NCBI RefSeq assembly: GCF_016446395.1
Contig: NZ_CP051168.1
Coordinates: 3,621,579-3,685,578 of the forward strand
From: [Phormidium] sp. ETS-05
GTDB lineage: Bacteria; Cyanobacteriota; Cyanobacteriia; Cyanobacteriales; Laspinemataceae
DNA: 64,000 nt
Direction: 5' to 3'
The position numbers and the translations under genes are program-made. Of the stretch, positions 11,096 to 54,745 are shown piece by piece (position 1 is the first letter of the stretch; the number at the start of each line of letters is the position of its first letter). A model generated the notes under the pieces. That model was not told the DNA's origin. It was given only the letters and a program-made list of their open reading frames with translations, and made no database searches.

Positions 11096-12657
11096 ATGGC
11101 CCGTTTAGCTCTGGTGAGTACGTCTGATAAAACGGGGTTAGTCGAGTTCGCCCGCCACCTCGTAGAAGATTTCGGATTTGACCTGATTAGCAGTGGTGGT
11201 ACTGCTAAAACCCTGTCCGAGAATGGGTTACCGGTAATGAAAGTGTCTGATTACACCGGTTTTCCTGAGATTTTGGGGGGGAGGGTGAAAACTCTGCATC
11301 CGCGCATTCATGGTGGGATTTTGGGGCGGCGAGACTTTCCCTCAGACGTGGCAGAAATGGAAACTAACCATATCCGCCCCATAGATTTGGTGGTGGTCAA
11401 CCTTTACCCGTTCCAGGAGACGATCGCCAAACCGGGAGTGACGATGGCGGAGGCGATCGAAAATATCGATATTGGCGGACCGGCGATGCTGCGAGCTGCA
11501 GCCAAAAACCACCTGCACCTAACGGTTTTATGCAAACCGTCTCAGTATGAACCGTATTTGCAGCAGTTACAAGAACAGGGGGGGGAAGTATCCCTGGCAT
11601 TCCGCCAAGCCTGTGCCCGGGAGGCATTCTGGCATACGGCGACTTACGATGAGGCGATCGCTGCCTACCTAGGCAGCCAACCCCTGGTGGGCTCTGTGGA
11701 AGAAACCCCCTTGCCACCCCAATTTACCCTGGTGGGCAAGCAAGTGCAGCCGATGCGGTACGGTGAAAACCCGCACCAGAAAGCGGCGTGGTATCAAACC
11801 GGACAAACTTCTACCGGTTGGGCCGCCGCTACCAAAGTCCAGGGTAAAGAACTGAGCTACAACAACTTGGTGGACTTGGAAGCCGCCCGCCGCCTGATTT
11901 CCGAGTTTCCCAGTTCCGGTGAAGCCGCAGCGGCGATTTTAAAACACAACAACCCTTGCGGCGTGGCTTTGGCAAAAACGCCCGTAGAAGCATATAAAAA
12001 AGCCCTCGCCTCGGACCCGGTATCGGCTTTTGGGGTATTGTGGCTCTCAACTGCCCGATCGATGCGGATACCGCCGGGGAGCTGACCCAGATATTTTTGG
12101 AATGTGTGGTGGCTCCCGCTTGTACTCCCGAGGCGGCGGAAATTCTCCAAAGCAAATCTCGGGTGCGGGTTTTGACTCTGGCTTCGCTGACGGATGAGCC
12201 GCAGCAAACTATCAAAGCGATCGCTGGTGGTTTCTTGCTCCAAGAAGGCGATCGGGCAATGGAACAGCCCCAACATTGGAAAGTGGTAACGGAAAAACAA
12301 CCCACTCCCGACCAACTCGAAGAGCTGTTCTTCGCCTGGAAAGTGGTTAAACACGTGAAATCTAATGCTATCGTCGTCACTCGCGATCGAGCCACCGCTG
12401 GCGTGGGAGCCGGTCAAATGAACCGGGTGGGGTCAGCAAAAATCGCCTTAGAACAAGCGGGAGATAAAGCGGTAGGAGCAGTCCTCTCTAGCGATGCCTT
12501 TTTCCCCTTTGGCGACTCAGTACGCCTCGCCGCTGAGAAAGGGATCGTGGCGATCGTCCAACCAGGAGGCAGTCTGCGCGACCAAGAGTCGATCGACGCT
12601 GCCAACGAACTGGGCATCGTGATGATGTTTACTGGTATCCGCCACTTCTTGCACTAA
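11096..12657 (+). CDS. purH: Bifunctional AICAR transformylase / IMP cyclohydrolase PurH, with an apparent -1 frameshift near 12030-12040 in a G run.
   Basis: N-terminal [19 protein letters not shown] (MGS-like IMPCH domain). The second ORF (12040-12657) continues the AICARFT domain ([28 protein letters not shown]). Expected SAFGGIVALN is broken at gcttttggggtattg. Confidence 0.85.
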
Positions 12658-17015: not shown

Positions 17016-17393
17016 ATGACTAGACTTTCAGATATCGAGATAAAAGTTAACGCCCTGGGTAAAAATCCTACGGATGTATGGGAATTTCCCAAGGTGACAT
17101 CAGGTAAAAATCGGTCATCAGCAGAACGCACCCCCCATCCCGCCCAATTTCCCGCCGCTGTCATAGAACGCATTATTAAGGCTACTTCCAACTCCGATGA
17201 CATAATTTTCGACCCTTTTCTCGGTTCCGGGACTACTGCGGTGGTAGCTTTAGCTCTCCAGCGACAGGTAATCGGCTTTGAAATTAGGCAGGATTATTGC
17301 GATATCGCCGCTAACCGCATTGATGATTTTCTGACCAATCTCAGCCGTTTTGACGCGCAAAAATCACCGGCTCTAAGGGCTAGCTACCGGTGA
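17016..17393 (+). pseudogene. C-terminal fragment of a beta-class N4/N6 DNA methyltransferase (R-M remnant).
   Basis: TPHPAQFPAAVIERIIKATSNSDDIIFDPFLGSGTT matches the HPTxKP...DPFxGSGTT AdoMet-binding end of beta-class methyltransferases. There are only 125 aa, and no DPPY-containing N-terminal half lies upstream. Confidence 0.55.
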
Positions 17394-28574: not shown

Positions 28575-28740
28575 AGTTTAAGTCCTTTGTCATTTGTCAT
28601 TTGTCCTTTGTTATTTGTCATTTGTTTTGTTATACAAGGGACAAAGGACAAGGGACAAGTGACAAATGACAATCCCCCAACCCCCTTTGAAAGGGGGGGA
28701 CTTGCGGACAAGTGACAAGTGACAAATGACAAATGACATT
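28575..28740. repeat. STRR inverted-repeat array containing a GC-clamp palindrome (28676-28702).
   Basis: Read directly from the sequence. Confidence 0.85.
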
Positions 28741-29463: not shown

Positions 29464-29775
29464 ATGCCCGAGGCAGTTGGAGTCATTGAAACCGACGGGT
29501 TTCCGGCGGTACTTGCCGCCGCAGACGCAATGGTAAAGGCGGGTCGAGTCGCGATCGTGTATTATGGCATGGCGGAAAGTGCCCGCCTCTTGGTAGCTAT
29601 TCGCGGCCCGGTAGCGGAAGTGAGACAGGGTATGGAAGCGGGAATCGACGCTGGGGAAAAAGTCGGTAAGGGTAAAGTGATTACCCACTATATAGTTCCC
29701 AATCCGCCGCAAAATGTGGTGGCAGTCTTGCCGATCGAGTACACGAAAACTAGCGAACAATTCCGATTTACTTAA
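29464..29775 (+). CDS. ccmK3: Carboxysome shell protein CcmK (BMC-H domain), CcmK3-like.
   Basis: AVGVIETDGFPAVLAAADAMVKAGRVAIVYYG...IRGPVAEVRQGMEAG is a BMC domain. It is the first gene of the conserved ccmK3-ccmK4 pair. Confidence 0.8.
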   Translation: MPEAVGVIETDGFPAVLAAADAMVKAGRVAIVYYGMAESARLLVAIRGPVAEVRQGMEAGIDAGEKVGKGKVITHYIVPNPPQNVVAVLPIEYTKTSEQFRFT

Positions 29776-29882
29776 CTTTTAGTGCCGCCACCCCCAGCCT
29801 CAAATCATGGCAGGGGTGGGCAATTTGGCGCAGGCTTTTTGCCTGCATAGAAAATTTTATCGATTCAGGAGATTAATTCCAC

Positions 29883-30239
29883 ATGGCAGTACAGCAAGCA
29901 GTAGGGGCATTGGAAACCAAGGGTTTCCCCGGCATTCTCGCCGCCGCCGATGCAATGGTGAAAGCGGGTCGCGTTACTCTGGTGGGTTATTTGCGTGTAG
30001 GTAGTGCCCGGTTTAGCATCATCATTCGCGGTGATGTGTCGGAAGTGAAAACCTCGATGGATGCGGGGATTGCAGCGGTAGAATCGGCTTACGGTGCAAC
30101 TCTGGAATCTTGGGTGATTATTCCCCGTCCTCACGAAAACGTGGTGGCGGTTCTGCCGATCGCCTTCACCGCTGCGGTAGAAGAATACCGCGAAGCTGCA
30201 GAAGGCATCATTATGCCGGGACGCCCCCCAGTCCGCTAA
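29883..30239 (+). CDS. ccmK4: Carboxysome shell protein CcmK4-like (BMC-H).
   Basis: AVGALETKGFPGILAAADAMVKAGRVTLVGYLRVGSARFSIIIRGDVSEVKTSMDAG. Confidence 0.8.
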   Translation: MAVQQAVGALETKGFPGILAAADAMVKAGRVTLVGYLRVGSARFSIIIRGDVSEVKTSMDAGIAAVESAYGATLESWVIIPRPHENVVAVLPIAFTAAVEEYREAAEGIIMPGRPPVR

Positions 30240-30430
30240 ATTTTTGTCCTTTGTCCTTTGTCACTTGTCCCTTGTCACTTGTCACTTGTCACTTGTCACT
30301 TGTCACTTGTCCCTTGTCCCTTGTATGAGTAAGACAATAAATGTTTTTGTTTCTCACTTGTATGAAAAAACAAAGGACAAATGACAAAGGACAAATGACA
30401 AAGGACAAATGACAAATGACAATTGACAAT
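30240..30430. repeat. STRR inverted-repeat array ((CTTGTCA)n ... (GGACAAA/TGACAAA)n).
   Basis: Read directly from the sequence. Confidence 0.9.
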
Positions 30431-30433
30431 TGA

Positions 30434-33077
30434 TTAGCTGTCACTGCGTGGGGGCAGGGGGTTGACTAAACCGCTGGCGGTACTAAATAAGTTGATGGGG
30501 TTTTTGCCATCGGTAATCAGTACGCTTTGGATGCCAAGACCTTCTAGCAAACGAGCCTGCATTTCTGGGCCTGCTTGAGCGATCGCCCGGAGGGTTTCTG
30601 TCCCGATCGCTGCCACTTTCTCGGCAAATTCCCGGCTAGTAATCTCCGCCATCGCCTGGGCTTTTTGCACTTCCAAATTGCTCAAAGCCTGCTGGTGTGC
30701 CAATTCTGCCTCTTGACGTGCCCTCATTTGCGCCAATTCTGTCTCAGCACGGATGCGGGTCGCTTCGGCTTCTTGTTGCGCCATACTTACGGCTAATTCC
30801 CCTTGAATGCGAGCCGCTTCGGCTTTTGCTCGCGCTGCCGCGATCGCCTCTCCCGTAGATTCAATAGCCGCGTTTTCCGCCTTTGATTCTAGCAGATTTT
30901 TCCGCTGTGCTTCCGAAGCCGCCTTATCAATAATTGCCTGCCTTTCTAACCGGGCTCGCTTCCTGTTCCAACCGCGCCGCATCCTGTCGCGCCGCCGCTT
31001 CTTGAGCATCCGTAGTAATTTTAATCGCCAACTGCACCGATTTCTGTAAACTCTTTAACGTTTCCTCATCCACCGGTTCCACCGATTGAATATCCACGTT
31101 AAAAATCACCAGATTATTCGTCCTGAATCGGAATTCATCGCGCACGTGCCCTTGGTCATCTAAGCCAAACACTGCTTGGCGAATAATCCGCGCCGAATTG
31201 CGGTGAAATTCATCAAAAGAAACACTAGCCACCGCACCCCGCACGCGAGAAGCAATAGCTTTACAAGCCGTATCCACAAAATCAGGCGCTTGAAACAGTT
31301 TGGCCGCCTCATCTTGATTGGTTTTATCTACATTAAAATACCAATTATAAGACAAGCGCAATTGTAACCGGGCGTGGTCTGCAGTTTCCACCGCAAACAA
31401 ATCGGTCATAAAGTCGGGTCCTAACAGCAAAGCCAGAGATTTAATCACATGGGGACGCTTGGGCACTCCTCCCGATAAACTCAGCACCGTAAAGGCTTCG
31501 TCTGGACCTAACATCACCAAATCTGGGCCAAACACAGTCCGGGCAGTTCTTTCCTTATAATCGTGAATCTGTACTGCCGCATTTTGGGGCACGTGAAACA
31601 CCACGGCGCGAGTTTTATCTCTTTGAAAGCTAGATTTCTGCTCGCCATCTTGGCGATATCTGCCCCGTTCAGAAACTGGGTCATTTTTAATCGCCAGCAA
31701 CTCTTCTACGATAGGCGGTACATCTTTTTCCCATAATTCTTCATAGGGACTGAGCATATATGCTCGCGGACCGCTGACTACTTTTAATTCCCCCGTTTGC
31801 ACGTCCCGGACGTAGATGCCTTCATTTTTATCTAAGGGAATGGCTTGGCGTTTTTCTACTACTTCCACCTCCACGCGGGGAATGTATTCTCGCGGTCCGG
31901 ATATCATCCATAAATCCCCCGGTTGACGGTGGATGATTTGGTCGCCTTCACCTTCATCGAAGGCTTCATTAGCCCGGAGTAACAAGGCTTCTTGTTCGCT
32001 GAGGACATAAATTCGGCGAATGCCCTCCGGTTGACCTTCAGAATCATCATCATCCGTATAGTAGGGGATTTCCAACTCTTCTCCGGGATGGAGGAAAAAG
32101 GAGATTCTCCCTTGACGGACTTCTCGTTTCCCTAGTTGCGGTTTGCCCAATTCATCGATGGGGTTGAAGACGATGCACCATTCCCGATCGCTCAGGGTGG
32201 TAATGGGTACTTCTCCCACCACTTCTTCATAGACATCGGGGATATGAATTTCCGCATCTTCTATAGTTACGAGCCATTCATCCCCAGCTTTGCGCCGCCG
32301 TCCGAAAATATCGGTAAAAGTCCGTTTAGCGCGCAAGTGTAAAGCGGTTTGTTCTGTTAATACATAAGCATCAATCAAGTCGATAACTTCTTCATCGACT
32401 CCGGGTAAATAAGAGCCTTCTTCTCTTACCAGCCATTCTTCCCCAGCGCGGCGCCTTTGTCCCGTGCGATCGGTGCAATTTTGTCGCGCCATCAAATGCA
32501 GCGCCTGATTAGGTTTGATAATTATCGCTTTCACCGTAGCGATAACTTCCACTTCCACGCGAGGAATATAAGTTCCTGGACCTTCAAATAGCCATTCATC
32601 CCCCGCCAACTGGTGGATAACGTTGTTTTGATTGTCAGTATAGGATAAATCTCTAATCGCTCGCAACCGCAGAGCTTGATTTCTTTCTACTACCTGCAAA
32701 AGCTGGACTTTTCCCTCGATTTCTTCCCCCGGATATACTGGGAAAGGCTCTTGCTGAAAGCGGATTTCTCGGTCGCCATATCGGAGTTTAATTTGACCGT
32801 GAGTATCCGCTACTGGTTGCCCCGACTCATCCCGCAATACGGGATTTTTTACTACGCAATAATGCCTAGGCGGCACTACGGTCATTTGCTGGGGTGACAT
32901 TACTACCCGTTCTTGGTCTCGCAGAGTAATCGTTTGGGGGCCAACTTCCAAACGGGTAACGCCAGTGTTGTTATCCAAGACGTGAATAAACTGTTGGGGT
33001 TTGAGGCGGATCGATCCCCCAGATATTCCGGGGAGTTCGCTGGGAGTTTCCCCAATGCGATCGGCTTTAGTCATCAA
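30434..33077 (-). CDS. Major vault protein (MVP) homologue, split by a +1 frameshift near 30940-30960 into a 716-aa N-terminal ORF and a 191-aa C-terminal ORF.
   Basis: The N-terminus ...[53 protein letters not shown]... mirrors the eukaryotic MVP N-terminus (...YIHVLDQN..VEVGPKTY...VPPRHYC..). Multiple MVP repeat units follow. The second ORF is the Ala/Glu/Arg/Gln-rich cap-helix coiled coil. The combined length of about 880 aa matches MVP. Confidence 0.75.
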
Positions 33078-33400
33078 GTTTCCTCAGCCATGATTGGAAT
33101 TGTCTTCTGATTTATTCTAGCCTTGGCTCTATTTTTTCGTCGATAAATATTAATTAACTTTTGTTACATTTTGGCGCAAATAGATAGATTTGTAGGTTGG
33201 ATCCGCCATCGACGAAACCCAACCTACAGATTTTGGCTAAGAGCTGATTTATAAAGTACATCTTGAAGGACATCGGCGCATGAAAGCGTCAAGGATCCCC
33301 CCCTGCCCCCCCTTAAAAAAGGGGGGGAATTTCTACAGCCCCCCTTAAACAGGGGTTGGGGGATCCAGATTTTCTTTATGAATCAGCTCTAATAACGGGG

Positions 33401-34381
33401 TTAGATGATGGCGAGAGAAATCATCAGGGCATGGAGGTTATCCCCGAAGGCGGTAGTTATCTCATGGGTGATGGGCAGGCTATCAACTACCATCCCTGCA
33501 GAAAGCAGCATGAGATAAAGGATGGAGTATTTGAATAAACTGCGGGCGAGCTGCTTGTCTTCCGGTTCGCGCAATAGTTGCCATGCTTTGAGGGCGAAGA
33601 TGGCGCCCAGCCAAAGGGCGATGCTGGCGTAAACCACACCGCTGGCGTGGAGGGGATAAACCAGGAGGAAGGTGGAGGGGAGCATCACTAGGGTGTAGAG
33701 CCAAATTTGCTGGGCGGTGGGTTGGCAACCAGCGATCGCCGGGAGCATGGGGACTCCGACTCCGGCGTATTCATCCCGGATCATCATGGCGAGAGCCCAG
33801 AAGTGGGGGGGAGTCCAGAGAAAGACGATCGCGAACATTGCCCAAGCTGGCCAACTGAGGTCCCCGGTGACGGCGGCCCAGCCCACGAGAGGGGGAATAG
33901 CACCCGCTGCACCCCCGATGACGATATTTTGGGCGGTGTGGCGTTTCAGCCAGTGGGTGTAAACCAGGACATAACAGACAATACCGGACATTGCCAACAA
34001 AGCGGCGAGCAGGTTGGCAAAGATGGTGAGCAAACTAAAGGATGCGGCGGCGAGAGCCATAGCGAAGATGAGAGCATCCCGAGGCTGTACCCTACCGGAG
34101 GGGATGGGCCGCTTTCGGGTGCGTTCCATAATATAGTCGATGTCTCTGTCGTAGAGACAGTTAATGGTATTGGCGGATGCAGCGGCTAAGGCGCCACCAG
34201 TAATAGTCACCAATAGCAGCAAGGGGTCCACTTCGCCTTTGGCGGCGACCCACATGGCGGCGGCGGTGGAGATGAGCAGGAGCAGGATGATGCGTGGTTT
34301 GGTGAGTTGGTAATAACTCTGCAGCACCTGGATGAGATTTTGATGGTGTCTGATAACGGGGCGATCGATTATTTCTTGCAT
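33401..34381 (-). CDS. ctaB: Protoheme IX farnesyltransferase (heme O synthase).
   Basis: [46 protein letters not shown]... is a UbiA-family polytopic protein with CyoE/CtaB motifs ([20 protein letters not shown]). The listed ORF's first 23 aa are a translated STRR array. Confidence 0.85.
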
Positions 34382-34397: not shown

Positions 34398-34580
34398 CAG
34401 CTTGTGGTTTGTCCTTTGTCATTTGTCACTTGTCCTTTGTCCTTTGTCACTTGTTACTTGTCACTTGTATGAATAAAAAATCCCAAAGGACAAAATAATC
34501 CCTACCCAAGGACAAAGGACAAATGACAAAGGACAAATGACAAAGGACAAATGACAAAGGACAAAGGACAAAGGACAAAG
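34398..34580. repeat. STRR inverted-repeat array between ctaB and ctaA.
   Basis: Read directly from the sequence. Confidence 0.9.
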
Positions 34581-34588
34581 GACAAAAA

Positions 34589-35518
34589 TTAATCCCGCAT
34601 CGCCAGGGTGGCGAATACGACCAAAGTGCCCAACAAGGCGGCCCCGGTGGTGTGGTGAGCGACGGTGAGGGGTTCGACTTGCAGGTGGAGGTAGAAGGTG
34701 GCGACGCCTAAACTAATTTGGCAAACCAGCAAAGTGGTGGCGGCGATCGCGAGACGGCCCAGAGTGGGATGGAGGTTTTGGTGCGCCAAGCCATGACGGC
34801 GAGGGTAAGGATGGCGGTGGTGGGGAAGACTACCCCGATGATGTGGCTGTGCATCACTGTGCATAGCTGCTGGTAGCCAAAGCATTGGTGTAAAGCCCAT
34901 TGGGAGGCGACTAGACCGCCGGAGATGCTTTGCAGATACACCAGGATGGCGCTACCAACTGCCACCCAGGGGAGTTTAGATCCCCCAACCCCCTTTTAAA
35001 GGGGGGGAAATGACGCCGGTGCCTTCATAGGGGGTGAGTGCGGCGGCGATCGTCAATAAGGTGATGAAAAATAACAAAGCGGTGCCCAAATGAGCGGTGA
35101 CAATATCAAACCGCAGCAGCTCAGTCACGGTGAGCCCGCCCAAAACCCCTTGAAACACGATTAAACCGAGGGCACCCGTGGCGGCCCAAGGTAGCCAACT
35201 GGGCAAGTGGCGGCGATACCACCAGCTACCCCCTGCGAGAGCAATGGCCATAATGCCAATTAGGGAAGCATCGAGGCGGTGAAACCATTCTAAGAACACT
35301 TGCAGATTCATTTGCCGAGCGGGCAATAATTCCCCGTAGCACAGGGGCCAGTCAGGGCAAGCTAGTCCCGCATTCATCACCCGCGTGGCGCTACCCACCG
35401 CCATGAGTAACAGGGTGGCAATAGCGATTTTCCAGACAAAACCACGGATCCGCTGTTGGGTTAAGGTGCTGTCACTGTTGGTAGTTGCCTGCTTCGGCTC
35501 CATCACTGAGTTAGCCAT
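34589..35518 (-). CDS. ctaA: Heme A synthase (CtaA/COX15), disrupted. An inserted GC-clamp palindromic element introduces a stop, and at least one further frameshift follows.
   Basis: Three consecutive minus ORFs in three frames (34976-35518, 34708-34965, 34589-34900) all look like COX15 transmembrane segments with conserved His (e.g. LACPDWPLCYG, TVMHSHIIGV, LTVAHHTTGA). The first ends inside the palindromic repeat at 34978-35010. Confidence 0.6.
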
Positions 35519-41325: not shown

Positions 41326-44300
41326 CTACCAAGGAGTGCCAATCAGAGTAAATGGGGCCCAGTAGTAGGGGTGAGTAAAATCGAGGTCGGCTTGCTTTGG
41401 CTTCACCTCGCCGCGCAACATGGCTATTTGTGCTTGCTGTAGGGCCTCGACTTTGGTGGGGGACTGTCCGAGATTCTGGTAAAGTTGCGCCATGAGTTCT
41501 GAGGTGCCGCCGTCGCTGACTTCCCACAGGGTGGCGATCGCGGTTTTTACCCCCGCTTGCACCGATAAGCCTGCAAACCCCATTTCCGCGTCCCGGTTGC
41601 CCACGGCGGTTTCACAGGCACTGAGTACGAGTAATTCTACCGAGCGATCGCCATACCATTGCACCTGGCGTAAATCTTCCAAATGCTTCTGGCCATCCCA
41701 AAATTGGATGTAGTTATTATCCTTATTCTGGAATGCGGCATGGGTGGAAATGTGAATGATGTTAAACCGCTGGCTTTGGCGAGCTTCAGCGAGATTCGCT
41801 AACGTAGCTTGTTCGTTGCGATAAATGGCGACTCCATTCGGCCATGAAGAGTTGATGGCGTCCAGTGTTTCATTTACCCCCAGGAGGTTTTCTAATTTTT
41901 TGACATTGGCCAACCTCTCAAAATCAGATATTCCCATTGCCAACACTTCCCCATCCTGCAATCTGTTGTAGGTAGCGTCACTGAAGGAAGAACTACTGAT
42001 AATTTGGGCTACTTTGTATTTCTCTACCAGAAATTGTTGGCCATCATGCAAAGCTGCTATCGGTAGCAGACTCATACTATCTGGCAGCCCAAATATTAAT
42101 GTGTTGATTCCCAGGGATTGCAACTCTGCTTCCAAAGGTTTAATCAGGATATTATACAGAATTTGTGCATCATGTACTACAGATGTTTTGGCTGTGTTCT
42201 TATCACGTACACTATTGTGAAATAATTTCACCATTTCTTTCAATTCATCAATTTTATTGGTAGTAACTATCTCCTCAACCAGTTGTCCTTCACTATTGAT
42301 GCGGCGCTGGATGCGATGTTCTGTCAGTGGATAGACAGAGGTTGGTCGCCCAGAACCAGTCAACATCACTAACCGCATTCCTATCCCTTTTTGGTCATCT
42401 ACATAAATGATTGCGGGTTTTAAGCTTGTCTCCCGACTTATTTTAGTAAGCATTTCGCGCATTTGAGTTTCGCTTTTGGTTTTCGGTAGCTCTTTATTGC
42501 GCAAATACTCGGTATATTCATTAGTGCGCTGTTGATCAATCAAATCGAATAGGCTTTCTCCATTAGCAGGAGGAGAGGTCGGTAAATTGCTGGCGGGGTT
42601 GAGATTGGGACTCTGTGGTGGCGCCAGGAATCGGGGATTTTTGGGGTTATCACGTCCCAGGGAAACTGGTTCAGTGGTAGGGTTGCTGCTATCCCCTGCA
42701 TTAGGAGAAACTCCATTCCCTTGATTGAGTGGTTGCTCTGTTGGGGGGGTTGCTGGTGCGGGTGCTACGGTTCCGGGAAAATCGGGAGCCGCATTCGGGG
42801 TTGAAGTTTGGTTAACGGTGGGTTGGTTGTATGGGCGCTGATACTGCTGAAGACCAAGGGAAAGTTTCACCGAAGGCTCGATTATCAGAATATTATCCGA
42901 CAATACAGGGCCAATGGTTATGCCTTGGGGAGCTTGTAATGTAATTTGTGCATCGGGAAATCCTGACCCAGAATTGGCGTCTAAAGCACCGGTGACAATA
43001 CGTCCCACGTCAGAGTTTAAACTGATAATTCCCGCTTGTTGATTTTCAGAACGGCTAGTAATGTCGCCGGTGGTGATATTTTGGTTGGCATTTATCTGGA
43101 CGTTACCGGCTGGTCCGTCGATCGCGCTACCATTCACATCACCCAGATTAACTTCACCTGCGGTACTGGTGATGGTGACATTGCCAGCAGCATTCAGGGG
43201 AGTAGGTTCTGGGCCGCTAGTGGGTGTTGGCGCCACAACTGTGGCAGTGGGAGTGGGGTTATTCACTACAGGAGCAGCAGTGACTGACGATGGCGATATG
43301 TTGGCGGGAGCAATTACTGGCGAAGCAGTGGCGGTAGCAGTTGCTGGTGATGTGGTGGTGGGGGTGGTTGGTCCAGCAGAAGTATTGATATTTCCCAGAT
43401 TGATATCTCCAGGAGCTGTGGCGGTAACGCCGCCACCAGAACCATTACTGGCAGAACTGCTGTTGATATCACCGATGGTAATGCTGCCTTCTGTACTGGT
43501 GGCAGTAACATCACCTGCATTTCCAGAATTAACGTTGGTGCTAATATCCTCGGCGGTAACGTTTCCAGCAGCTTGTAAGTTTACCGGTCCACCTGTACCC
43601 ACGTTGGCTTTAGTAGTGAGAATGTTAGCGGTGACATTGCCGTTTGTGCTGGTAATAGTGATGCTGCCGCTGGTTCCCAGTGCGGTTGCGGGAAGAGCGG
43701 GGGAATTACTCGTGGCTGGTGGAGTGGTGGCTGCAGGTTGTGCCGGAGCTGTGGCTGTAGGTTGTGCCGGAGCTGTGGTTACAGGTTGTGGTGTGGGAGT
43801 CGTGGCTGCAGGTTGTGCCGGAGCTGTGGTTACAGGTTGTGCCGGAGTGGCGCTAGCTGGTGGAGTCGTGGCTGCAGGTTGTGCTGGATCTGTGGTTGTT
43901 GGCGGGGGACTGTAGTTGGTAGAGGCATCAACATTACCCACGGTGACATTATTGTTACCGGATACACCAATATTTCCCGCATTTCCCTGCTGCGCGGAAC
44001 TATTCAAATCTTCGGCTTTAACGCCGCCTTCGCTGCTGTTGACTGAAATATTGTTGCCGTTGCCTTCTAAGCCCGATCGGCTATCGATACTCCCAGTGTT
44101 AACATCATCTGTGGCGTTGATGCTAGTTTCTCCGGCATCCCCTTCTACGGTTGATGTCACCACAGTGGGATTGCTAACGGATTCCTCTCGACCGTCCGTG
44201 GTCTCCACTTCGATTTTAATTCCTGAATTGCCGTTATTGGGAGTTGTGCTGTCACTGTCGCCGGTTTGAGTGTCAGTACCATCATCAGTAGGGGTATCTT

Positions 44301-46401
44301 CAGATGGAGGGGTTGTTGGTTCTGGTTCTGGCTGTGGTTCCGGTTCTGGCTGTGGTTCCGGTTCTGGCTGTGGTTCTGGTTCCGGTTCTGGTTCCGGTTC
44401 TGGTTCCGGTTCTGGTTCCGGTTCTGATGTAGTGGGTGGTTTTGGGGCGATCGGCGTAATTTTCACCGGTCCAGCCAGCAAACCCTGACCCGGTAAAGAC
44501 ATAGTTTCTGAAGGAGTTAGCGTCACCGAACCATCATCATTACAAGCCACAGTTCCCGATGCACTGGTGCCGCAATTGTTCTGGAAAAAATCATACACAG
44601 CGCCGCTGGTAATGGTAATACTGCCACCCACTTCTATGGTGATACTGCCTGCATTTCCGAACCAAGTGCCAGTTATGGTTTCTCCGATATTAATATTCTC
44701 AGCCGCTTTCAGGTAAATAGGGCCACCATCACCGGACATAGAGCCAGTAGTAATCACGCCACCGGTCAAATTAGCGCCGCTCGTGAGGGAAATAGAGCCA
44801 CCATTGCCATTAGGCGCATTTGCATCTATCCCCCCAGCATTGATATTGCCAGTAGCATTGACCGTAATCGAACCTGCATCGCCGCCGTACTTAGTGTTAA
44901 CGGCTAGATGAGTACCGCCAGAAAAGGCAGGAATCATCCCAAAATCGCCCCCAGCGGTGATATCAATCGTGCCACCACTTCCCTCCTTGCTAACAGCACG
45001 AACTTTATCCGTAGCAATGTTGCCTCCGGCGTCTAAAATAATACTGCCTGCATCCCCTTTCTGCCATACGCTAGCTTCTACCTGACCAGTGGTAATATCA
45101 TTCATGGCTCGAATTTCTATATTGCCGCCATGACCGGAGTCCGTCGTAGCGCCCACGTTTTCAAGTTTAATGCTACCGTTAGTGCTGTTAATGGTGATGT
45201 CGGCAGCAGTTCCACTCGCGCTATAGCCACTAATTAATCCTGTGGCATTAATATCGCCGTTGGCGTCGATGGTGATGTCACCTGCATCAGCAGCAGCAGT
45301 GGAAGAAGAATTGAGGGAACCGGTTATCTCAATTTTGCCATCACTATTGATATGGATATCTCCCCCCGGCGAACCACCGGTATTGATACTGTCAAGAGTG
45401 ATATCCCCTTTTGCTTCCAAGGTGACGTTACTACCTGCAGCATTGAGGGTTCCAGCGTTCAGAAAACCGCCAGACAGAAGATGGATACCACCACCAGCAA
45501 TACCAGATGTAGTGGTGGCATTTGTGGCAACTAAAGCGCCGTTTTCTATTTTGACTCCAGAACCGGTCAAGTTTACAGTACCATCGGCATTTTTTTGCAC
45601 TCCCGTGGCATGAGTGGCGACACCCCCCGTGAGCAATCCCGGTAAATCTAGCGGAGAAAATGTCAAATCATTAGGCAGACTTCCCGCCGCACTGCTAGGG
45701 ATGATATCCAAACTCAACAACATACCATCTTGACTCAGGCGCAGGACATTGCCACCGTCCACCGATGCTATATTTATTTGGCCACCTGGTGCAGTTAAGC
45801 TACCGGTACTGATGACTGTGCCTCCGAATAGGTTTAAATTTTTTCCCTCTAATACGGATAAATTACCAGAATTGATAATTGTCCCCGGTTGGGACATGGT
45901 GAAGGCAAATTGATTGGGGGTTCCGGTTAAATTGGTGTAGTCGTTATTGCCAATGGCGTTAAACCAGTTGCTGCCTAAACCTATGCCATTGGCGGTAGTT
46001 GCCGTAAATGAACCCATAACGTTTAATTGGGCGTTGGCACCAAAAACAATTCCCGCTGGATTCATTAGAAACAAATTGGCATTGCCGCCCGTCACCTGTA
46101 TTAGCCCATTAATTAGTGAGGCATCGCCGCCAACTACACGACCGAGGATGTTTTGAATGGTGGGGTTTGTCTGGAAATTGGCAGTTTGTCCAGAATCGAG
46201 ATTAAATTGGTCAAAACTGTGAAATAGATTCGTCCCCCCGGTTGTACCGTCTTTAATATCTATGGTGGTGCCGTTAATATTGATATTGGTGTTGGTGGGG
46301 TTGCCGGTTTCTGGGGTGATTTGTGCCAGAACTGGTGTCCCAGCTAATCCGATTCCTAATGGTAGTAGGCATAAAGCTGTATGCAATCCTGATGGTTTCA
46401 T
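41326..46401 (-). CDS. Giant secreted two-partner-secretion exoprotein: N-terminal haemagglutination (TPS) domain, beta-helical repeat body, Pro/Thr/Glu-rich linkers, and a C-terminal CHAT (caspase-like) protease domain.
   Basis: Signal peptide. The TPS domain ...IDIKDGTTGGTNLFHSFDQFNLDSGQTANFQ...NILGRVVGGDASLINGLIQVTGGNANLFLMNPAGIVFG. Gly/Asn/Thr-rich beta-helix repeats. (PEPE/PQPE)n linkers. C-terminal CHAT His/Cys dyad (IIHISTHAAF ... LLVLSACETAVG). Confidence 0.75.
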   Translation of the reverse strand: MKPSGLHTALCLLPLGIGLAGTPVLAQITPETGNPTNTNININGTTIDIKDGTTGGTNLFHSFDQFNLDSGQTANFQTNPTIQNILGRVVGGDASLINGLIQVTGGNANLFLMNPAGIVFGANAQLNVMGSFTATTANGIGLGSNWFNAIGNNDYTNLTGTPNQFAFTMSQPGTIINSGNLSVLEGKNLNLFGGTVISTGSLTAPGGQINIASVDGGNVLRLSQDGMLLSLDIIPSSAAGSLPNDLTFSPLDLPGLLTGGVATHATGVQKNADGTVNLTGSGVKIENGALVATNATTTSGIAGGGIHLLSGGFLNAGTLNAAGSNVTLEAKGDITLDSINTGGSPGGDIHINSDGKIEITGSLNSSSTAAADAGDITIDANGDINATGLISGYSASGTAADITINSTNGSIKLENVGATTDSGHGGNIEIRAMNDITTGQVEASVWQKGDAGSIILDAGGNIATDKVRAVSKEGSGGTIDITAGGDFGMIPAFSGGTHLAVNTKYGGDAGSITVNATGNINAGGIDANAPNGNGGSISLTSGANLTGGVITTGSMSGDGGPIYLKAAENINIGETITGTWFGNAGSITIEVGGSITITSGAVYDFFQNNCGTSASGTVACNDDGSVTLTPSETMSLPGQGLLAGPVKITPIAPKPPTTSEPEPEPEPEPEPEPEPEPQPEPEPQPEPEPQPEPEPTTPPSEDTPTDDGTDTQTGDSDSTTPNNGNSGIKIEVETTDGREESVSNPTVVTSTVEGDAGETSINATDDVNTGSIDSRSGLEGNGNNISVNSSEGGVKAEDLNSSAQQGNAGNIGVSGNNNVTVGNVDASTNYSPPPTTTDPAQPAATTPPASATPAQPVTTAPAQPAATTPTPQPVTTAPAQPTATAPAQPAATTPPATSNSPALPATALGTSGSITITSTNGNVTANILTTKANVGTGGPVNLQAAGNVTAEDISTNVNSGNAGDVTATSTEGSITIGDINSSSASNGSGGGVTATAPGDINLGNINTSAGPTTPTTTSPATATATASPVIAPANISPSSVTAAPVVNNPTPTATVVAPTPTSGPEPTPLNAAGNVTITSTAGEVNLGDVNGSAIDGPAGNVQINANQNITTGDITSRSENQQAGIISLNSDVGRIVTGALDANSGSGFPDAQITLQAPQGITIGPVLSDNILIIEPSVKLSLGLQQYQRPYNQPTVNQTSTPNAAPDFPGTVAPAPATPPTEQPLNQGNGVSPNAGDSSNPTTEPVSLGRDNPKNPRFLAPPQSPNLNPASNLPTSPPANGESLFDLIDQQRTNEYTEYLRNKELPKTKSETQMREMLTKISRETSLKPAIIYVDDQKGIGMRLVMLTGSGRPTSVYPLTEHRIQRRINSEGQLVEEIVTTNKIDELKEMVKLFHNSVRDKNTAKTSVVHDAQILYNILIKPLEAELQSLGINTLIFGLPDSMSLLPIAALHDGQQFLVEKYKVAQIISSSSFSDATYNRLQDGEVLAMGISDFERLANVKKLENLLGVNETLDAINSSWPNGVAIYRNEQATLANLAEARQSQRFNIIHISTHAAFQNKDNNYIQFWDGQKHLEDLRQVQWYGDRSVELLVLSACETAVGNRDAEMGFAGLSVQAGVKTAIATLWEVSDGGTSELMAQLYQNLGQSPTKVEALQQAQIAMLRGEVKPKQADLDFTHPYYWAPFTLIGTPW

Positions 46402-46459
46402 CTTATTTTTACTTCATGTGTATTCGGTGATTTATCCCCTACTTTCAAAGGGGGTTGGG

Positions 46460-46800
46460 GGATTCTTTTGTCTTTGGTCATTGGCTGTAGGGGCACGGCG
46501 TCATTGAGATTTCTCGTGAAACCCAGATATTAATGAGGCCGTGCCCCTACCACGGGATGATTTTTTTCATATGTGCAATTGTTATTTGTCGTTGGCCATT
46601 GGTTGTGGGGGCACTGCGTTATTAAGATTTCTCGTGAAACCTAGATATTAATGAGGCCGTGCCCCTACCAGGGGAGGCTTTTTTCATATGTGCAATTGTC
46701 ATTTGTACTTGGTCATTGGTTGTGGGGGCACGGCGTTATTAAGATTTCTCGTGAAACCCAGATATTAATGAGGCCGTGCCCCTACCACGGTAGATTGAGG
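46460..46800. repeat. Three tandem copies of an approximately 120-bp unit, each containing a 21-bp-stem hairpin (GTAGGGGCACGGCGTCATTAA ... TTAATGAGGCCGTGCCCCTAC).
   Basis: Units start near 46486, 46606 and 46726. Single copies of the hairpin occur at 21022-21086 and 40478-40543. Confidence 0.85.
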
Positions 46801-46827
46801 TTCGGGGTACGGTGCCAGGGATGCCCA

Positions 46828-47916
46828 TTACGGCTGTAATTTTTGTAAGTTTTGCACTCGTGTGACATCACCTAATGTTTCATAACCTTGAATTGCCTCC
46901 TGGAGAAATCGCTGGGCTTGGGGGGTATCTTTCAGGGCGGAATAAATTTCTGCCAATTTTGCCGCTGCTTCGGTTTTGATGACTAAATCGGGGGTTTCAG
47001 TGGCGAGTTGGAAGGCTTGGAGATAGTTGTTTATGGCTAGCTGGTTTAGTTGTACTTCCTCGTACAAACCTGCTAGGGTGTGGTAAATTTGGGCTGATTT
47101 TATATTGGCACTGATGGCGGTTTCTAGGGTCTCAATGGCTTCGGCTCTTAACTTATATTTCTGGTATAATATGACTTGGGCTAGAGTCTGCGTGGGTTGG
47201 CCTGGTTGCTGCTGACTTAGTTCGGTGAGGTCGGCTTGGAGGTTGGCTCTTTTACTGTCATCAAGTATGGTGAATCCGAGCTGCATTCCGGGGTCATCAG
47301 TGGAACTAGCCCCGCTGTCGGTGATGATGGTAATTAAGTAATATTCTCCGGGTTGTAAGGGGGTTTCGCCTCCATAAACTACTTGATTGGTGGTGACTTC
47401 TGTTTTCCAATCGACTCCGACTCCCCGCACGCGCACGCGATAGCTGTTGGCTCCGGTTACGGCGTTCCAGCGGATGGTTGGGGTTGGGGAAAGTAGGTGG
47501 GTGCGGCGGGGACTGATGAGATAGGGAAGGTTGGCATCGATACCGGCGATCGCGTCCCCCATAGTGGGATCGGGATTCACAGTCGGCACCGGACAGATAT
47601 TTGCTACCCCTGACGGACTGCCACTGGGTACAGGCTGTGTGGTGCCGTTGCTGCATTGCAGCTTGACTTGGCTCCCGGCGGCGGGCCAAATTAAATCGCC
47701 GTTATCCAGGCTGGTGCCTACGGCGGCGGGTTGGTAGCTGCTCCACCCACTACGTTTGATAGATACTTGTCCGGTGGCGGTGAGGATCGTTCCCAGGGAA
47801 GCGGCGACGGCGGTTGGGGCAGTGGTGAATGCCCCAGTCACCATGATGGACGTGGTAAGTCCGAGGGAACTAAAGCGGTTTAAATACAGGTTTTTGGTGA
47901 GAGTTTGACTGCACAT
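46828..47916 (-). CDS. Secreted FecR-domain protein with C-terminal TPR repeats.
   Basis: Signal peptide. FecR-like GQVSIKRSGWSSYQPAAVGTSLDNGDLIWPAAGSQVKLQCSNGT. C-terminal TPR-like helices. It is paralogous to the ORF at 51545-51916. Confidence 0.55.
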   Translation of the reverse strand: MCSQTLTKNLYLNRFSSLGLTTSIMVTGAFTTAPTAVAASLGTILTATGQVSIKRSGWSSYQPAAVGTSLDNGDLIWPAAGSQVKLQCSNGTTQPVPSGSPSGVANICPVPTVNPDPTMGDAIAGIDANLPYLISPRRTHLLSPTPTIRWNAVTGANSYRVRVRGVGVDWKTEVTTNQVVYGGETPLQPGEYYLITIITDSGASSTDDPGMQLGFTILDDSKRANLQADLTELSQQQPGQPTQTLAQVILYQKYKLRAEAIETLETAISANIKSAQIYHTLAGLYEEVQLNQLAINNYLQAFQLATETPDLVIKTEAAAKLAEIYSALKDTPQAQRFLQEAIQGYETLGDVTRVQNLQKLQP

Positions 47917-49615
47917 CTAATTGCCTCTGTTGCATCAGCATAACTTCATAACTTACCAACCGTTGCTGAGCCATATCAATCCACTTACTTTCTTCGGGAG
48001 TAGTAGTGGGTTGAGCGTAACGCAGACAGTTTTCCCACTCGGTCAAAGCTGCCTTTGGTTGGTTTTGGTTTTCTAGCACTTGCGCTAATAAGCAGTAAGC
48101 GGAGGCTCGTTCTGGGTTGAGGCTGATAGCCATCCGCAAATTGGCTTCGGCGACTGCATAGCCTTTTTGGATAGCTCTTGCCCATCCCAAGTTTTTGTGC
48201 AGGGAATATTTCACCCCATTACTAAAATTGTTTTTCTGTAGTTCAGGCAATATTAGTTGTACTGCTGCCTCGGGATTTCCCGCTAGAATTTCCAACCGAG
48301 CTAAATTATTTACCGCTGGGGTGTAGCCTTTTTTGGCGGCTTTGTAGTAATACTCTTTGGCTAGGTTTTGGTTGAAAAAAGGCTGTTTTTCATACAGCAA
48401 ACCCAGATTATTATAAGGTTTGGGGTAATTGGGTTTGACCCAAATGGCGGTGTGATACCAAAATTCGGCTTGTTCTGGGTTTGTGGTTCCTGCGGCTTGT
48501 CCTAACCGGGTGCAAAAGTCGGCTATGGGTTGCAGAGTTAGCTGCAAGCCAATACACAATATCAATAAGCTGATGGCCGATCGCCGCATTTGCTGTGGGG
48601 AAAACGGCCATGAGAAGATGATTCCTAGACGCAGGTTCTGGCGACGAAACTCCCCAGAGATGTGAGGATTTGAGGGATTTTCCTCGGTGCTTTCTGAGGG
48701 AGCATCATAAAGATGCTGTAGCCGCTCTAACAGCACTTGGGGATTGGCTGGTCGCTGCTGGGGGAGAGGGGATATCATTTGGTCGAGCAAATCTGCCAAC
48801 GGTTTGGAGATTCCCTCTACCCGATCGCGCCATAGCAGTTTATTGGTGCGCCGATGTTTGGGCAAATCGTCGGGATATGAGCCGGTGAGCAAATGGACGA
48901 TCGTGCAGCCAAGACCAAAAATATCTGATTGGGGAACCGCCCCCCCGCTGCGCTGTTCTGGTGCGGTGTATCCATAGGAACCCACCGGCGTCACAGCGCG
49001 ATTAATAAACCCCACGTTGCCAAAGTCGATTAATGCTAATTCTCCGTTAGCTTTCAGGATAATGTTGCTGGGTTTGATATCCCGATGCAGCAATCCTTCT
49101 TCATGTACGTAAATCAGCAGTTGGGTGATTTGGCGCAACCAATTTACCGCGATCGCTTCGGTAATCTCCCCATTTTCCTGGAGCCATGCTCGGAGGTTAG
49201 TCCCCTCAATCTGCTCCATTACCAGACAGGGCAATTGCCTGTGAGCATCTAGAGAAATGGTGAAGAAGCCATCCGGTTCGACCCGAGGCAAACCGGGATG
49301 ACGCAACCGCTTTAATATGGTGGCTTCTCGTTCAAACAGAGTTTGGGCGCCGGTTTCCTGCATTTTGAGAACTTTCAGCACTTTGGGCCAGTCCTCTCGG
49401 TCAGGATTGATGTCCCAGTCTTCCACCTCAAAGACATCGGTTGTGTATTCTTCGTCCAATTGCCGCAGGGGTTTGGCGAGGCGATAGCGATCGTTGATCA
49501 GCAGTGGCGTACCGCAACTGAGACAGCGAGAGCCATCATCGGGGTTGAAGCGGTTGATACAACGGGGGTTAATGCAGTAACACCCGATTTCGGGGGGTTG
49601 ATTAGCGGCAGTCAT
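47870..49615 (-). CDS. Membrane Ser/Thr protein kinase with an N-terminal zinc-ribbon and C-terminal TPR/Sel1-like repeats.
   Basis: CINPRCINRFNPDDGSRCLSCGTPL zinc ribbon. Kinase subdomains (HRDIKPSNIIL, IDFGNVG, GSYGYTAPE). A TM helix, then TPR-like repeats. Confidence 0.8.
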   Translation of the reverse strand: MTAANQPPEIGCYCINPRCINRFNPDDGSRCLSCGTPLLINDRYRLAKPLRQLDEEYTTDVFEVEDWDINPDREDWPKVLKVLKMQETGAQTLFEREATILKRLRHPGLPRVEPDGFFTISLDAHRQLPCLVMEQIEGTNLRAWLQENGEITEAIAVNWLRQITQLLIYVHEEGLLHRDIKPSNIILKANGELALIDFGNVGFINRAVTPVGSYGYTAPEQRSGGAVPQSDIFGLGCTIVHLLTGSYPDDLPKHRRTNKLLWRDRVEGISKPLADLLDQMISPLPQQRPANPQVLLERLQHLYDAPSESTEENPSNPHISGEFRRQNLRLGIIFSWPFSPQQMRRSAISLLILCIGLQLTLQPIADFCTRLGQAAGTTNPEQAEFWYHTAIWVKPNYPKPYNNLGLLYEKQPFFNQNLAKEYYYKAAKKGYTPAVNNLARLEILAGNPEAAVQLILPELQKNNFSNGVKYSLHKNLGWARAIQKGYAVAEANLRMAISLNPERASAYCLLAQVLENQNQPKAALTEWENCLRYAQPTTTPEESKWIDMAQQRLVSYEVMLMQQRQLDVQSNSHQKPVFKPL

Positions 49616-49642
49616 GGCGGCACCCCATAGTTTGATTGATTT

Positions 49643-51247
49643 TTAACTGGCGAGGGAATTTCCAGCCGGATCGGGCGGTAGGGCTTTGATTAATGATTGG
49701 ATGTTGTCAGCGGCATAGCCGACTTCAAACAGAGACCGATCGCCCAGCCAGCCTAGTAACCGATTATATCGCTCTTCCACTTTCTTTTGACTGCGGAACG
49801 CCTTACACAGCCGCTCGTTTACCTGTTGTAAAATTGGGTGTTCCGTCACAGCATCGCCGCTATCTGATCCTAGAGACCCTTTCCCCAGGTCATGGCTTCT
49901 TAACAAGCTCAATTTTTCGGCGTCTTGGGTTTTCACTGCCTCCATAATTTCGTTGCCAGCTTGAACCACCAGTTGATTCGTCACATATTCCAGCACCATC
50001 GGTTGCAGACTAAACCGAGCGCTGCCGGACTCAGTGATTTTTTCAATCAGGTTGCGCCGTCCCAGAGATTCTAAAGCCTCTAGGAGTTCGGCCTGATGTT
50101 CCGATAGTTCGATATCGTCTTGCAGGGTAAAGAATGTCACCGGTTGGCGCTCGATCGCCAGCCAGTAGAGAATTTCTTTCTCAAACTCATACAAGCGCTC
50201 AAACTGAAAGTCCAGCAAATCCCGAATGTTGCCAAACACAAAGGTTTTTTGCTTCAGGAACTCGGACACATTGCCGCCAAACAGCTCTTTAATCGTGGTA
50301 GCGACAATCTTTAAAGCCAAAGGATTGCCTCGGTAGAGGCGCGTTAGCTCTACCCACTGCTCCGGTTCCGATAACCCTTTAGCGCGGAAAATTTCCCACG
50401 ATTGCTCTTCGTCTAATTCCCTTAGCTCCATCACCCGCACGGGCATGGTTTCACCTTGCAGCAAGGCAATATCGTCGATTTGCTCCAGACTGGTAATCAC
50501 CAAGCAGCTTTGGTGGGATTCCGTGGCCACTCGTTTGATGAGATTGCCATAATCTTGATAGCTATCGCCATAATGCCCCGCTAGGTTGCCACTTCTGAGA
50601 ATCGCTTGGGCGCTATCTAGCACAATCAGACAGCGCTTGGCTTTCAATGTATCCATCAGTCGCGATATCCTGTCGTCAGTTTCATATGGTGGGCTGACGC
50701 CGGGGGCGAAAAATTTAATCAAATCTGCCAGCAGTTCCCTGGCTGGGGGAGCGTCCCGCAGACTGCGCCAAATTACTCCATCAAATTGGTCTTGAATTTG
50801 TTTGGCGAGTTTGATGGCTAGGGTGGTTTTGCCAATTCCCCCCATCCCGCAAATGGCGACCAAACGACAGCGATCGTTTAGTATCCACCCGGCTAAGGTG
50901 TCTAGCTGTTCGCTGCGACCGTAAAAAATGGACACATCGGGTGCTTCTCCCCAGTCGCGGCGGGGTTCTCCGTCCCACTCGAGGCTACTGCCATCTGGTG
51001 TTTGCCCCCGAGACAAAGCCAAGAGATGCTGCTGTAGTTTCGCCAGCTTCACAGGCCCGCGCCCCGGAATCTCAAATTTTTTGTAGATGTCGCTCAGGCG
51101 CTTGCGTACTAGGTCTTCGCTAATCTCGACTTTGGCGGCGATCGTCGGTGTTGATTCTCCCTTCATGGCTAGGGACAACACATGGAACTCTCCATCGGAA
51201 ACTTGCTTCTCGTCGGCGATGGCTTTTAACAGGTCCTCCTGAATCAC
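49643..51247 (-). CDS. STAND-class NB-ARC ATPase with an N-terminal LuxR/sigma-70 region-4-like HTH; no C-terminal repeat sensor domain.
   Basis: HTH segment LSLAMKGESTPTIAAKVEISEDLVRKRLSDIYKKF. Walker A VAICGMGGIGKTTLA and Walker B RCLIVLDSAQ. NB-ARC-type helical region. Confidence 0.7.
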   Translation of the reverse strand: MIQEDLLKAIADEKQVSDGEFHVLSLAMKGESTPTIAAKVEISEDLVRKRLSDIYKKFEIPGRGPVKLAKLQQHLLALSRGQTPDGSSLEWDGEPRRDWGEAPDVSIFYGRSEQLDTLAGWILNDRCRLVAICGMGGIGKTTLAIKLAKQIQDQFDGVIWRSLRDAPPARELLADLIKFFAPGVSPPYETDDRISRLMDTLKAKRCLIVLDSAQAILRSGNLAGHYGDSYQDYGNLIKRVATESHQSCLVITSLEQIDDIALLQGETMPVRVMELRELDEEQSWEIFRAKGLSEPEQWVELTRLYRGNPLALKIVATTIKELFGGNVSEFLKQKTFVFGNIRDLLDFQFERLYEFEKEILYWLAIERQPVTFFTLQDDIELSEHQAELLEALESLGRRNLIEKITESGSARFSLQPMVLEYVTNQLVVQAGNEIMEAVKTQDAEKLSLLRSHDLGKGSLGSDSGDAVTEHPILQQVNERLCKAFRSQKKVEERYNRLLGWLGDRSLFEVGYAADNIQSLIKALPPDPAGNSLAS

Positions 51248-52508: not shown

Positions 52509-52952
52509 ATGTCAAGTCAAAACGATAAAGAAATGGGAAAAGTTTTCGCCAGTATGACGATCGTTAACCGAGCTGACCAAATTTTGGCAGAAGCGGGGGT
52601 GATACCAGAAGACCAAATCCGATCACTCCACCTCAAAAACGTCCTAGTGGATACCGGAGCAACCACCTTGTGTTTGCCACCAGAGTTAATTAGCAAGCTG
52701 GGACTAAAAATCCTCAAAGAGGTAGATGTAGCCACAGCAATGGGCATTGGCAAAGCCCGCATTTTCCGAGATGCCTCCATCTTGATATCTGACCGAGAAG
52801 GAACCTTCGAGTGTTTGGAGCTACCGGGGGGTAGCGAACCGCTACTGGGAGTAATTCCTTTAGAATCTTTGGGCTTAGAAGTAGATTTGCAAAATCAAAC
52901 CTTAAAGCTCTTGCCCATCAGTCCCACCGAAACCTATTTGACGATTTTGTAG
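52509..52952 (+). CDS. Retropepsin-like (clan AA) aspartic protease, copy 1 of a tandem triplication.
   Basis: The catalytic NVLVDTGATTLCLPPELISKLGL (D-T-G-A) motif and a 147-aa size are typical of bacterial retropepsin-like proteases. Confidence 0.7.
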   Translation: MSSQNDKEMGKVFASMTIVNRADQILAEAGVIPEDQIRSLHLKNVLVDTGATTLCLPPELISKLGLKILKEVDVATAMGIGKARIFRDASILISDREGTFECLELPGGSEPLLGVIPLESLGLEVDLQNQTLKLLPISPTETYLTIL

Positions 52953-54418: not shown

Positions 54419-54745
54419 ATGAATCAACCGAATCAAATCCCCGAAATTATGAAAAAAACCAGCCAGGAAATCAAGAAAATTTATGGCGATCGATTAGACA
54501 GAATTATTTTATTTGGCTCCCAAGCTAGAGGCGATGCTAGACCCGACTCAGATATTGATGTTATGATTGTCTTGAAAAATAATTTCAATTATTTTCAAGA
54601 AAGCCAGCGCATCAGTGAGCCGATCGCGGACTTATGTTTAGAGTATAATGTTTTAATTAGCTGTGCCTTTGCCACCCGCGAACAATTTCAACAGCGCAAC
54701 ACCGGATTCTTCCGCAACATCCGCCGCGAAGGAGTTGCTCTATGA
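54419..54745 (+). CDS. mntA: Nucleotidyltransferase (MNT) antitoxin of a HEPN/MNT pair.
   Basis: GSQARGDARPDSDIDVMIV is the minimal nucleotidyltransferase motif. It overlaps the downstream HEPN gene by 4 nt. Confidence 0.85.
   Translation: MNQPNQIPEIMKKTSQEIKKIYGDRLDRIILFGSQARGDARPDSDIDVMIVLKNNFNYFQESQRISEPIADLCLEYNVLISCAFATREQFQQRNTGFFRNIRREGVAL

Follow-up and report, generated by a model that had tools for sequence, protein, structure and literature searches.

The segment from position 30434 to 33077 of the window, by which we refer to the whole 64,000-nucleotide stretch of DNA that was analysed, is very probably a cyanobacterial major vault protein (MVP) gene of a documented family, in which a break of 2 nt represents either an artefact or a very recent mutation and whose adjacency to BMC shell genes is coincidental. 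The gene is a typical, damaged member of the already known MVP family, and as such the finding is not new.

The larger of the two open reading frames (ORFs) into which the gene is divided extends over 30927..33077 on the reverse strand, encodes 716 aa when read from a TTG and covers MVP from repeat R1 through R9 and the shoulder to the beginning of the cap-helix. Its tail past the frameshift consists of 11 out-of-frame codons followed by a TGA. The ATG at position 33074 is likely the true start of this body ORF; it is preceded by GAGGAAA, and the closest homologue, P0001, opens with MTKADR. The initial annotation had described the ORF as an MVP homologue with MVP repeats, an assignment that is borne out by matches to all Pfam MVP repeat families and to the shoulder. 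Vault was matched in four stretches (E 6e-71) and Vault_2 in two, next to Vault_3 and Vault_4, all of them far over the gathering scores, and MVP_shoulder (PF11978, SPFH-like) was found at residues 553-670 with its whole profile covered (positions 1-118 of 118, E 8e-52). A phmmer comparison with PDB chains aligned residues 22-708 to MVP 7-685 in one stretch (E 1.9e-244), with 389 of the 668 aligned positions identical to the solved MVPs (58%). This colinear match to rat/human MVP 7-685 is interrupted by just one 14-aa insertion. A 14-residue acidic loop is present in the window copy and its closest relative, and missing from rat MVP and Planktothricoides.

The cap-helix and cap-ring are carried by a second ORF of 191 aa, located in the +1 frame at 30434..31009 on the reverse strand, of which the part from ~30955 to 30437 is homologous to MVP. 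Its first ~17 codons, counted from the ATG at 31009, are an out-of-frame overlap with the body ORF, and the two ORFs overlap by 83 nt in total. A Pfam search of the 191-aa ORF gave no match. In the phmmer comparison with the PDB, its residues 13-182 aligned to MVP 680-849 (E 1e-38, ~50% identity), which confirms the cap-helix coiled coil recognised earlier and also takes in the cap-ring motif. The strength of this match rules out Ala/Glu-rich low complexity as the sole cause of the likeness. The ORF is furthermore 95% identical to the C-terminus of P0001. When joined, body and cap parts give a product of 880/881 aa, in agreement with the full MVP size of ~880 aa proposed before. One continuous chain of ~850-900 aa is thus present in P0001 (880 aa) and absent in the window copy, in which the frame is broken. 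Taken together, these alignments show that the gene encodes all parts of a eukaryotic-type MVP in unchanged order.

The frame break maps to 30950..30962 on the reverse strand, which is in line with the frameshift that the initial annotation had placed at ~30940-30960 in the stretch gaagcgagcccgg. In a MAFFT pairwise DNA alignment with the locus of the closest relative (L002), the relative reads GAAGCCAGAGCCCGG (E-A-R-A-R) and the window reads GAAGC--GAGCCCGG, so that two bases are missing at ~30957/30958. This is the only indel of a length not divisible by three in the entire MVP gene. Restoring the Arg codon results in a single ORF of 881 aa that reads LEQEARARLERQ as does P0001, and the rat protein is similar at this place (LEQEARGRLERQ). 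The two missing nucleotides are situated outside any homopolymer run and could have been lost from a short AG/GA repeat.

The closest homologue identified in our protein search, P0001, is an intact protein of 880 aa with 96% identity from the metagenome-assembled genome (MAG) of Oscillatoriaceae cyanobacterium M33_DOE_052, whose contig was also recovered independently from ENA, JGI and Logan assemblies. The host of the window is a filamentous cyanobacterium related to this organism. Both share the gene order ctaCDE / ctaA-ctaB-MVP, and their DNA is ~91-92% identical over ctaCDE, ctaA, ctaB and MVP. We employed this alignment for a Nei-Gojobori analysis, in which dS in the MVP gene amounted to ~0.32-0.37. 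The dN/dS ratio was 0.057 over the 703 codons before the break and 0.056 over the 172 codons past it, the latter being read in the shifted frame; the intact ctaB yielded a value close to these (0.071). As judged from these ratios, strong purifying selection has acted on the segment that encodes the cap-helix to the same degree as on the remainder of the gene. Since dN/dS is equal on either side of the break, the lesion must be either very young or not real.

An uninterrupted full-length tblastn match was obtained in 60 of the 70 MVP loci fetched, the exceptions being contig ends, a few deletion remnants (L063 and L070) and a single MAG with a frameshift (L052). Across these sequences, the frameshift does not characterise the MVP family. 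The exact 715-aa product had no record in public collections, and metagenome scans for the frameshift site with 1-5 variable bases retrieved only the relative's contig and no second sample of the window lineage.

The MVP gene is not the only one in the window with a broken frame. In purH, which belongs to the core genes of de novo purine synthesis, the coding sequence falls into two ORFs matching positions 1-170 and 173-311 of the Pfam profile AICARFT_IMPCHas. The break lies inside a run of four G, and the addition of one G yields a protein of 520 aa with the motif SAFGGIVALN. Closer to MVP, the haem A synthase gene ctaA (34589..35518, reverse strand) is broken into three ORFs, two of which give Pfam matches to COX15-CtaA. 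Alignment with the relative revealed two lesions in ctaA, namely the loss of one A from an A5 run at ~34780 and a palindromic insertion of 28 nt with an in-frame TAA at ~34981-35008. The inserted sequence belongs to a repeat that occurs three times in the window. Because a repeat element of this kind cannot be produced by base-calling, real gene decay does occur in this region. Of the restriction-modification genes for a NotI-like endonuclease and for a DNA methylase, the window likewise contains fragments only.

While the initial annotation considered prokaryotic MVP genes to be rare, our searches and the literature contradict this notion for filamentous cyanobacteria. The protein search returned 2624 matches at E<=1e-20, of which the best 120 are all 860-930 aa in length with the full domain set. 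Close relatives are found in 66 species-level prokaryotic genomes, mostly those of filamentous cyanobacteria, with a minority belonging to Anaerolineae or Chloroflexaceae and to Thiomargarita or Parabeggiatoa. Cyanobacterial MVPs were described in 2013 by Daly et al., who noted their labelling as 'colicin uptake protein' and suggested horizontal transfer; these proteins are ~74% identical to each other and ~54-56% to eukaryotic ones (PMC3762200). MVP was subsequently associated with gliding filamentous bacteria (Sokolskyi 2019, bioRxiv 10.1101/872010), and a preprint of 2023 places cyanobacterial MVPs at the base of the eukaryotic cluster. NCBIfam has no MVP model, which explains the persistence of the 'colicin uptake protein' mislabel.

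When compared to the MVPs of other cyanobacteria, such as Moorena/Lyngbya (F4Y3B4), Allocoleopsis franciscana, Oxynema aestuarii and Planktothricoides raciborskii, the window copy has the same length of ~880 aa and the same Pfam architecture, shows 71-79% identity across genera and, like them, lacks a conserved partner. It differs from them in the 2-nt deletion that divides it into ORFs of 716 and 191 aa. The eukaryotic MVPs of rat and human (PDB 4V60, 4HL8, 7PKZ and 6BP7) consist of nine repeats, shoulder, cap-helix and cap-ring, which occur here in the same order with 58% identity in the body and 50% in the cap. In contrast to the bacterial host studied here, the eukaryotic vault possesses vPARP, TEP1 and vault RNA, none of which turned up in the window. 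The ~40 window ORFs scanned contained neither a PARP nor a TROVE domain, in accordance with the earlier statement that a vPARP or TEP1 partner is missing, and an Rfam search of the 64 kb, Vault RNA included, gave no match reaching the threshold. A further group is formed by distant MVP-like proteins of Plesiocystis, Saprospira, Microscilla and Herpetosiphon (Myxococcota, Bacteroidota and Chloroflexota), which have the SPFH-like shoulder fold and a long Ala/Glu-rich helix in common with SPFH/band-7 proteins and TolA domain II. The likeness to TolA-type proteins in shoulder fold and helix accounts for the annotation as 'colicin uptake/TolA' (PMC3762200). These distant bacterial proteins are ~16% identical to cyanobacterial MVPs (PMC3762200). 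The window protein belongs to the group close to eukaryotes and not to the distant MVP-like group.

The genomic surroundings are those of an unremarkable stretch of filamentous cyanobacterial chromosome with a GC content of ~0.50 throughout, containing enolase, purH, asd, psbP, maf, ispF, ribBA, a CheA-like hybrid kinase and cytochrome oxidase genes, and no tRNA was found in the window. The MVP gene had been described as standing alone on its strand, which does not hold: immediately upstream of it, ctaA and ctaB are read in the same direction, an order kept in the closest relative, and ctaCDE diverges from them. The haem O synthase gene ctaB (33401..34381, reverse strand; UbiA family, Pfam UbiA E 1e-73) is intact and aligns to the relative's gene without gaps at 96% identity. 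Its listed ORF extends to 34450, and the relative's start corresponds to MQEIIDR. The spacer between ctaB and MVP (33078..33400) holds a weak promoter-like site at 33143-33114 on the reverse strand; a scan for promoters and terminators gave counts at chance level. This spacer is 152 nt longer than that of the relative owing to copies of a palindromic C-run/G-run repeat at 33298-33365.

On the other side, the MVP gene is followed at 30239..30433 by two opposed tandem arrays of 7 nt, (TTGTCAC)n and (ACAAATG/ACAAAGG)n, which were detected by Tandem Repeats Finder and form a long inverted repeat (I21) between the convergent 3' ends of MVP and of the second of two BMC genes. Similar 7-nt arrays are present at 28582-28738 and 34402-34586, and the relative is devoid of them at the corresponding places. 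The BMC genes constitute a tandem pair of single-domain (BMC-H) genes for proteins of 103 and 118 aa (29464..30239, forward strand; Pfam BMC, E 3e-22 and 4e-23). In NCBIfam, both proteins produced only sub-threshold shell-protein matches and no equivalog above the cut-off. Their tandem arrangement away from the main ccm operon fits a putative ccmK3-ccmK4 satellite pair. The gene order common to the window and the relative stops at the 7-nt arrays, and the alignment breaks down past 30434. Beyond the 3' end of MVP, the relative carries def, an HtrA protease gene, dnaA and dnaN, a place taken in the window by the pair of BMC genes, ispF and a gene for a solute-binding protein. We extended this comparison to 66 different MVP loci from prokaryotes, fetched together with flanks of at most 8 kb. 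A tblastn search with both BMC proteins detected no homologue within 8 kb of MVP in any of the 66 loci, and clustering of 700 flanking ORFs revealed no conserved or MVP-specific neighbour, the largest cluster being generic PAS sensor proteins in 14 of the 66. When BMC, ctaB, ctaA, ispF and the solute-binding protein were sought near other MVPs, only ctaA, ctaB and ctaC were encountered, and those only in the closest relative.

The initial annotation had pointed to the adjacency of two protein-shell systems. As a physical arrangement this is correct, and the adjacency is the sole support for a functional pairing of MVP and BMC shell genes, for example in the form of a vault-like cage acting with carboxysomes. 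We regard such a pairing as highly improbable, given that the genes are convergent, belong to no common operon and are separated by a repeat hairpin, that the closest relative carries other genes at this place, and that neither a BMC gene nor a conserved neighbour family accompanies MVP in the other loci. We rather infer that the adjacency is the outcome of a rearrangement at the repeat-rich spacer and has no functional meaning. An identity of 58% to vertebrate MVP is more than one would usually expect of a bacterial protein and might raise the suspicion of eukaryotic contamination or a chimeric assembly. The probability of this is practically negligible and we rejected it on the grounds of synteny and composition: the gene is flanked by cyanobacterial genes on one contig, with the same order in the MAG and in the ENA, JGI metagenome and Logan assemblies, it is free of introns, and the gene occurs in dozens of cultured cyanobacterial genomes. 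Its GC content of 0.50 equals that of its flanks and of the rest of the window, and hence the MVP gene is a resident gene.

With respect to the frame break, we lean towards a consensus error in a sequence that has other indel problems. The purH frameshift points in this direction, since the loss of this gene through a break in a G-run is hard to believe in a free-living phototroph. The A missing from the A5 run of ctaA likewise speaks for an artefact. A serious competitor, which we hold to be quite possible while not favouring it, is a very recent inactivating mutation, i.e. a real deletion of 2 nt that cut the cap-helix from the frame in a gene now decaying like the nearby ctaA. A loss of 2 nt outside a homopolymer run does not look like a typical consensus error, the repeat copy that brings a stop codon into ctaA, two genes further upstream, is genuine, restriction-modification gene fragments occur elsewhere in the window, and the truncated or deleted MVPs of L063 and L070 imply that loss of the gene is tolerable. 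Against a pseudogene stands the dN/dS past the break, which is as low as before it and would require the inactivation to be very recent. Anything other than an artefact or a recent pseudogene appears very improbable to us. This applies to a functional split, be it through programmed +1/-2 ribosomal frameshifting or through a 716-aa body and a cap translated from the ATG at 31009 that cooperate as separate chains. The overlap of the two ORFs, the ATG of the second and the intact selection on the downstream part would be compatible with a split of this kind. The arrangement is, however, not conserved, as the 96%-identical relative and 60 of the 70 loci have a single ORF; no Shine-Dalgarno-like sequence precedes the ATG at 31009, the break site showed no recognisable slippery or stimulatory motif, and rat MVP requires for its assembly a cap-helix that is attached to the shell (van Zon 2002, as cited in PMC3762200). 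Similarly, we consider it very doubtful that the deletion is real and the gene still in use, with a capless body or a two-chain MVP giving rise to an open or differently closed vault-type shell. If this were true, a natural split MVP would show which part does what in a prokaryote.

The alignments show a gene that was a single ORF of ~880 aa before the 2-nt deletion shifted its cap-helix and cap-ring to the +1 frame; neither the closest relative nor, with few exceptions, the other homologues have this deletion. The eukaryotic vault shell is a hollow 39-fold barrel made of 78 copies of MVP. From the 50-58% identity to solved MVPs, the intact protein of ~880 aa may be expected to self-assemble like rat MVP, in such a way that the coiled coils of the cap-helices would hold 39 monomers together as a closed half-shell, and a pair of these would join via their N-terminal repeats to form a hollow cage. 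Daly et al. predicted that cyanobacterial MVPs fold and dock as rat MVP does (PMC3762200). According to van Zon 2002, as cited in PMC3762200, vaults do not assemble without the cap-helix, and hence the 716-aa product as written, which lacks this part, should by analogy not assemble. Since the window contains no vault RNA, PARP or TROVE partner, any particle would be a bare MVP cage or a cage with unknown cargo. In the literature searched, we found no experimental evidence of a vault particle from any bacterium, cyanobacteria included.

The gene carries little weight as a discovery, as MVPs of cyanobacteria have been in the literature for over ten years and are common among filamentous gliding species, with MVP occurring also in some Chloroflexota and giant sulfur bacteria. 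The window sequence contains several frame-breaking lesions in core genes, and apparent pseudogenes in it need read-level support before a biological meaning is attached to them. The general questions that the gene raises concern the family as a whole, namely whether bacterial MVPs that are 58% identical to animal MVP build vaults, which role they might have without vPARP, TEP1 and vault RNA, and in which direction the gene was transferred. For addressing these questions, the intact P0001 would be a better starting point than the frameshifted copy in the window.

The purH gene, which encodes AICAR transformylase/IMP cyclohydrolase (positions 11096–12657, plus strand), is interrupted at ~12032–12035 and appears as two ORFs of 329 and 205 aa because one G is missing from a G-run; putting one G back regains a PurH of 520 aa. 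Since purH is a core biosynthetic gene, its frameshift suggests that the window sequence contains indel errors. The haem A synthase gene ctaA (34589–35518, minus strand) is likewise broken and falls into three ORFs. It lacks one base in an A5 run at ~34780, and at about mid-gene carries a 28-nt palindromic insertion with an in-frame TAA (~34981–35008). The neighbouring ctaB and ctaCDE genes are intact.

Three copies of a short palindromic repeat, ATCCCCCAACCCCCTTTNAAAGGGGGGGA, are present in the window (28671–28700, 33298–33365 and 34979–35008), where none would be expected by chance; two of these sites are intergenic and one lies within ctaA. The repeat is absent at the corresponding places of the closest relative, Oscillatoriaceae cyanobacterium M33_DOE_052, and its behaviour resembles that of a small mobile element or a hairpin element. 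Three intergenic spacers (28582–28738, 30239–30433 and 34402–34586) additionally contain paired, opposed 7-nt tandem repeat arrays with units of (TTGTCAC/TTGTCCT)n facing (GACAAAT/GACAAAG)n, which can form hairpins of 60–80 nt. These arrays appear similar to the short heptamer tandem repeats known from filamentous cyanobacteria. None of the arrays of the window spacers is present in the closest relative, and one of them marks where synteny breaks off, at the MVP gene's 3′ end.

Elsewhere in the window, a NotI-family restriction endonuclease ORF (5049–5594, minus strand) covers only profile positions 8–153 of 238, and a DNA methylase ORF (17016–17393, plus strand) matches no more than the final third of N6_N4_Mtase. 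The two ORFs appear to be remnants of restriction-modification genes. The minus-strand region 41326–51247 encodes a 1691-aa protein with a two-partner secretion (TPS) domain at its N-terminus and a CHAT protease domain at its C-terminus. Next come a Ser/Thr kinase-TPR gene and an NB-ARC/NACHT ATPase gene, and the three together could represent a signalling or defence cluster. The kinase gene may itself be split into the overlapping segments 47870..49615 and 46828..47916, both with TPR repeats. Two tandem 147-aa paralogues with a retroviral-type aspartyl protease domain (52509–52952 and 53113–53556, plus strand) lie near a gene for a HEPN-domain protein (54742–55137, plus strand), in a region of low GC content (0.44).

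Compared to rat MVP, the window protein contains a 14-residue acidic loop inserted in an MVP repeat (residues ~337–352; 32055–32100, minus strand), and the same insertion distinguishes it from the Planktothricoides MVP; its sole other bearer is the MVP of the closest relative. Close relatives of the cyanobacterial MVP are carried by giant sulfur bacteria (Thiomargarita and Parabeggiatoa; fetched loci L048, L054 and L064) and also by filamentous Chloroflexota (Anaerolineae and Chloroflexaceae; L045, L047, L051 and L057), with identities of 64–70%. The occurrence of such close relatives in both groups suggests MVP transfer among mat-sharing filamentous bacteria.
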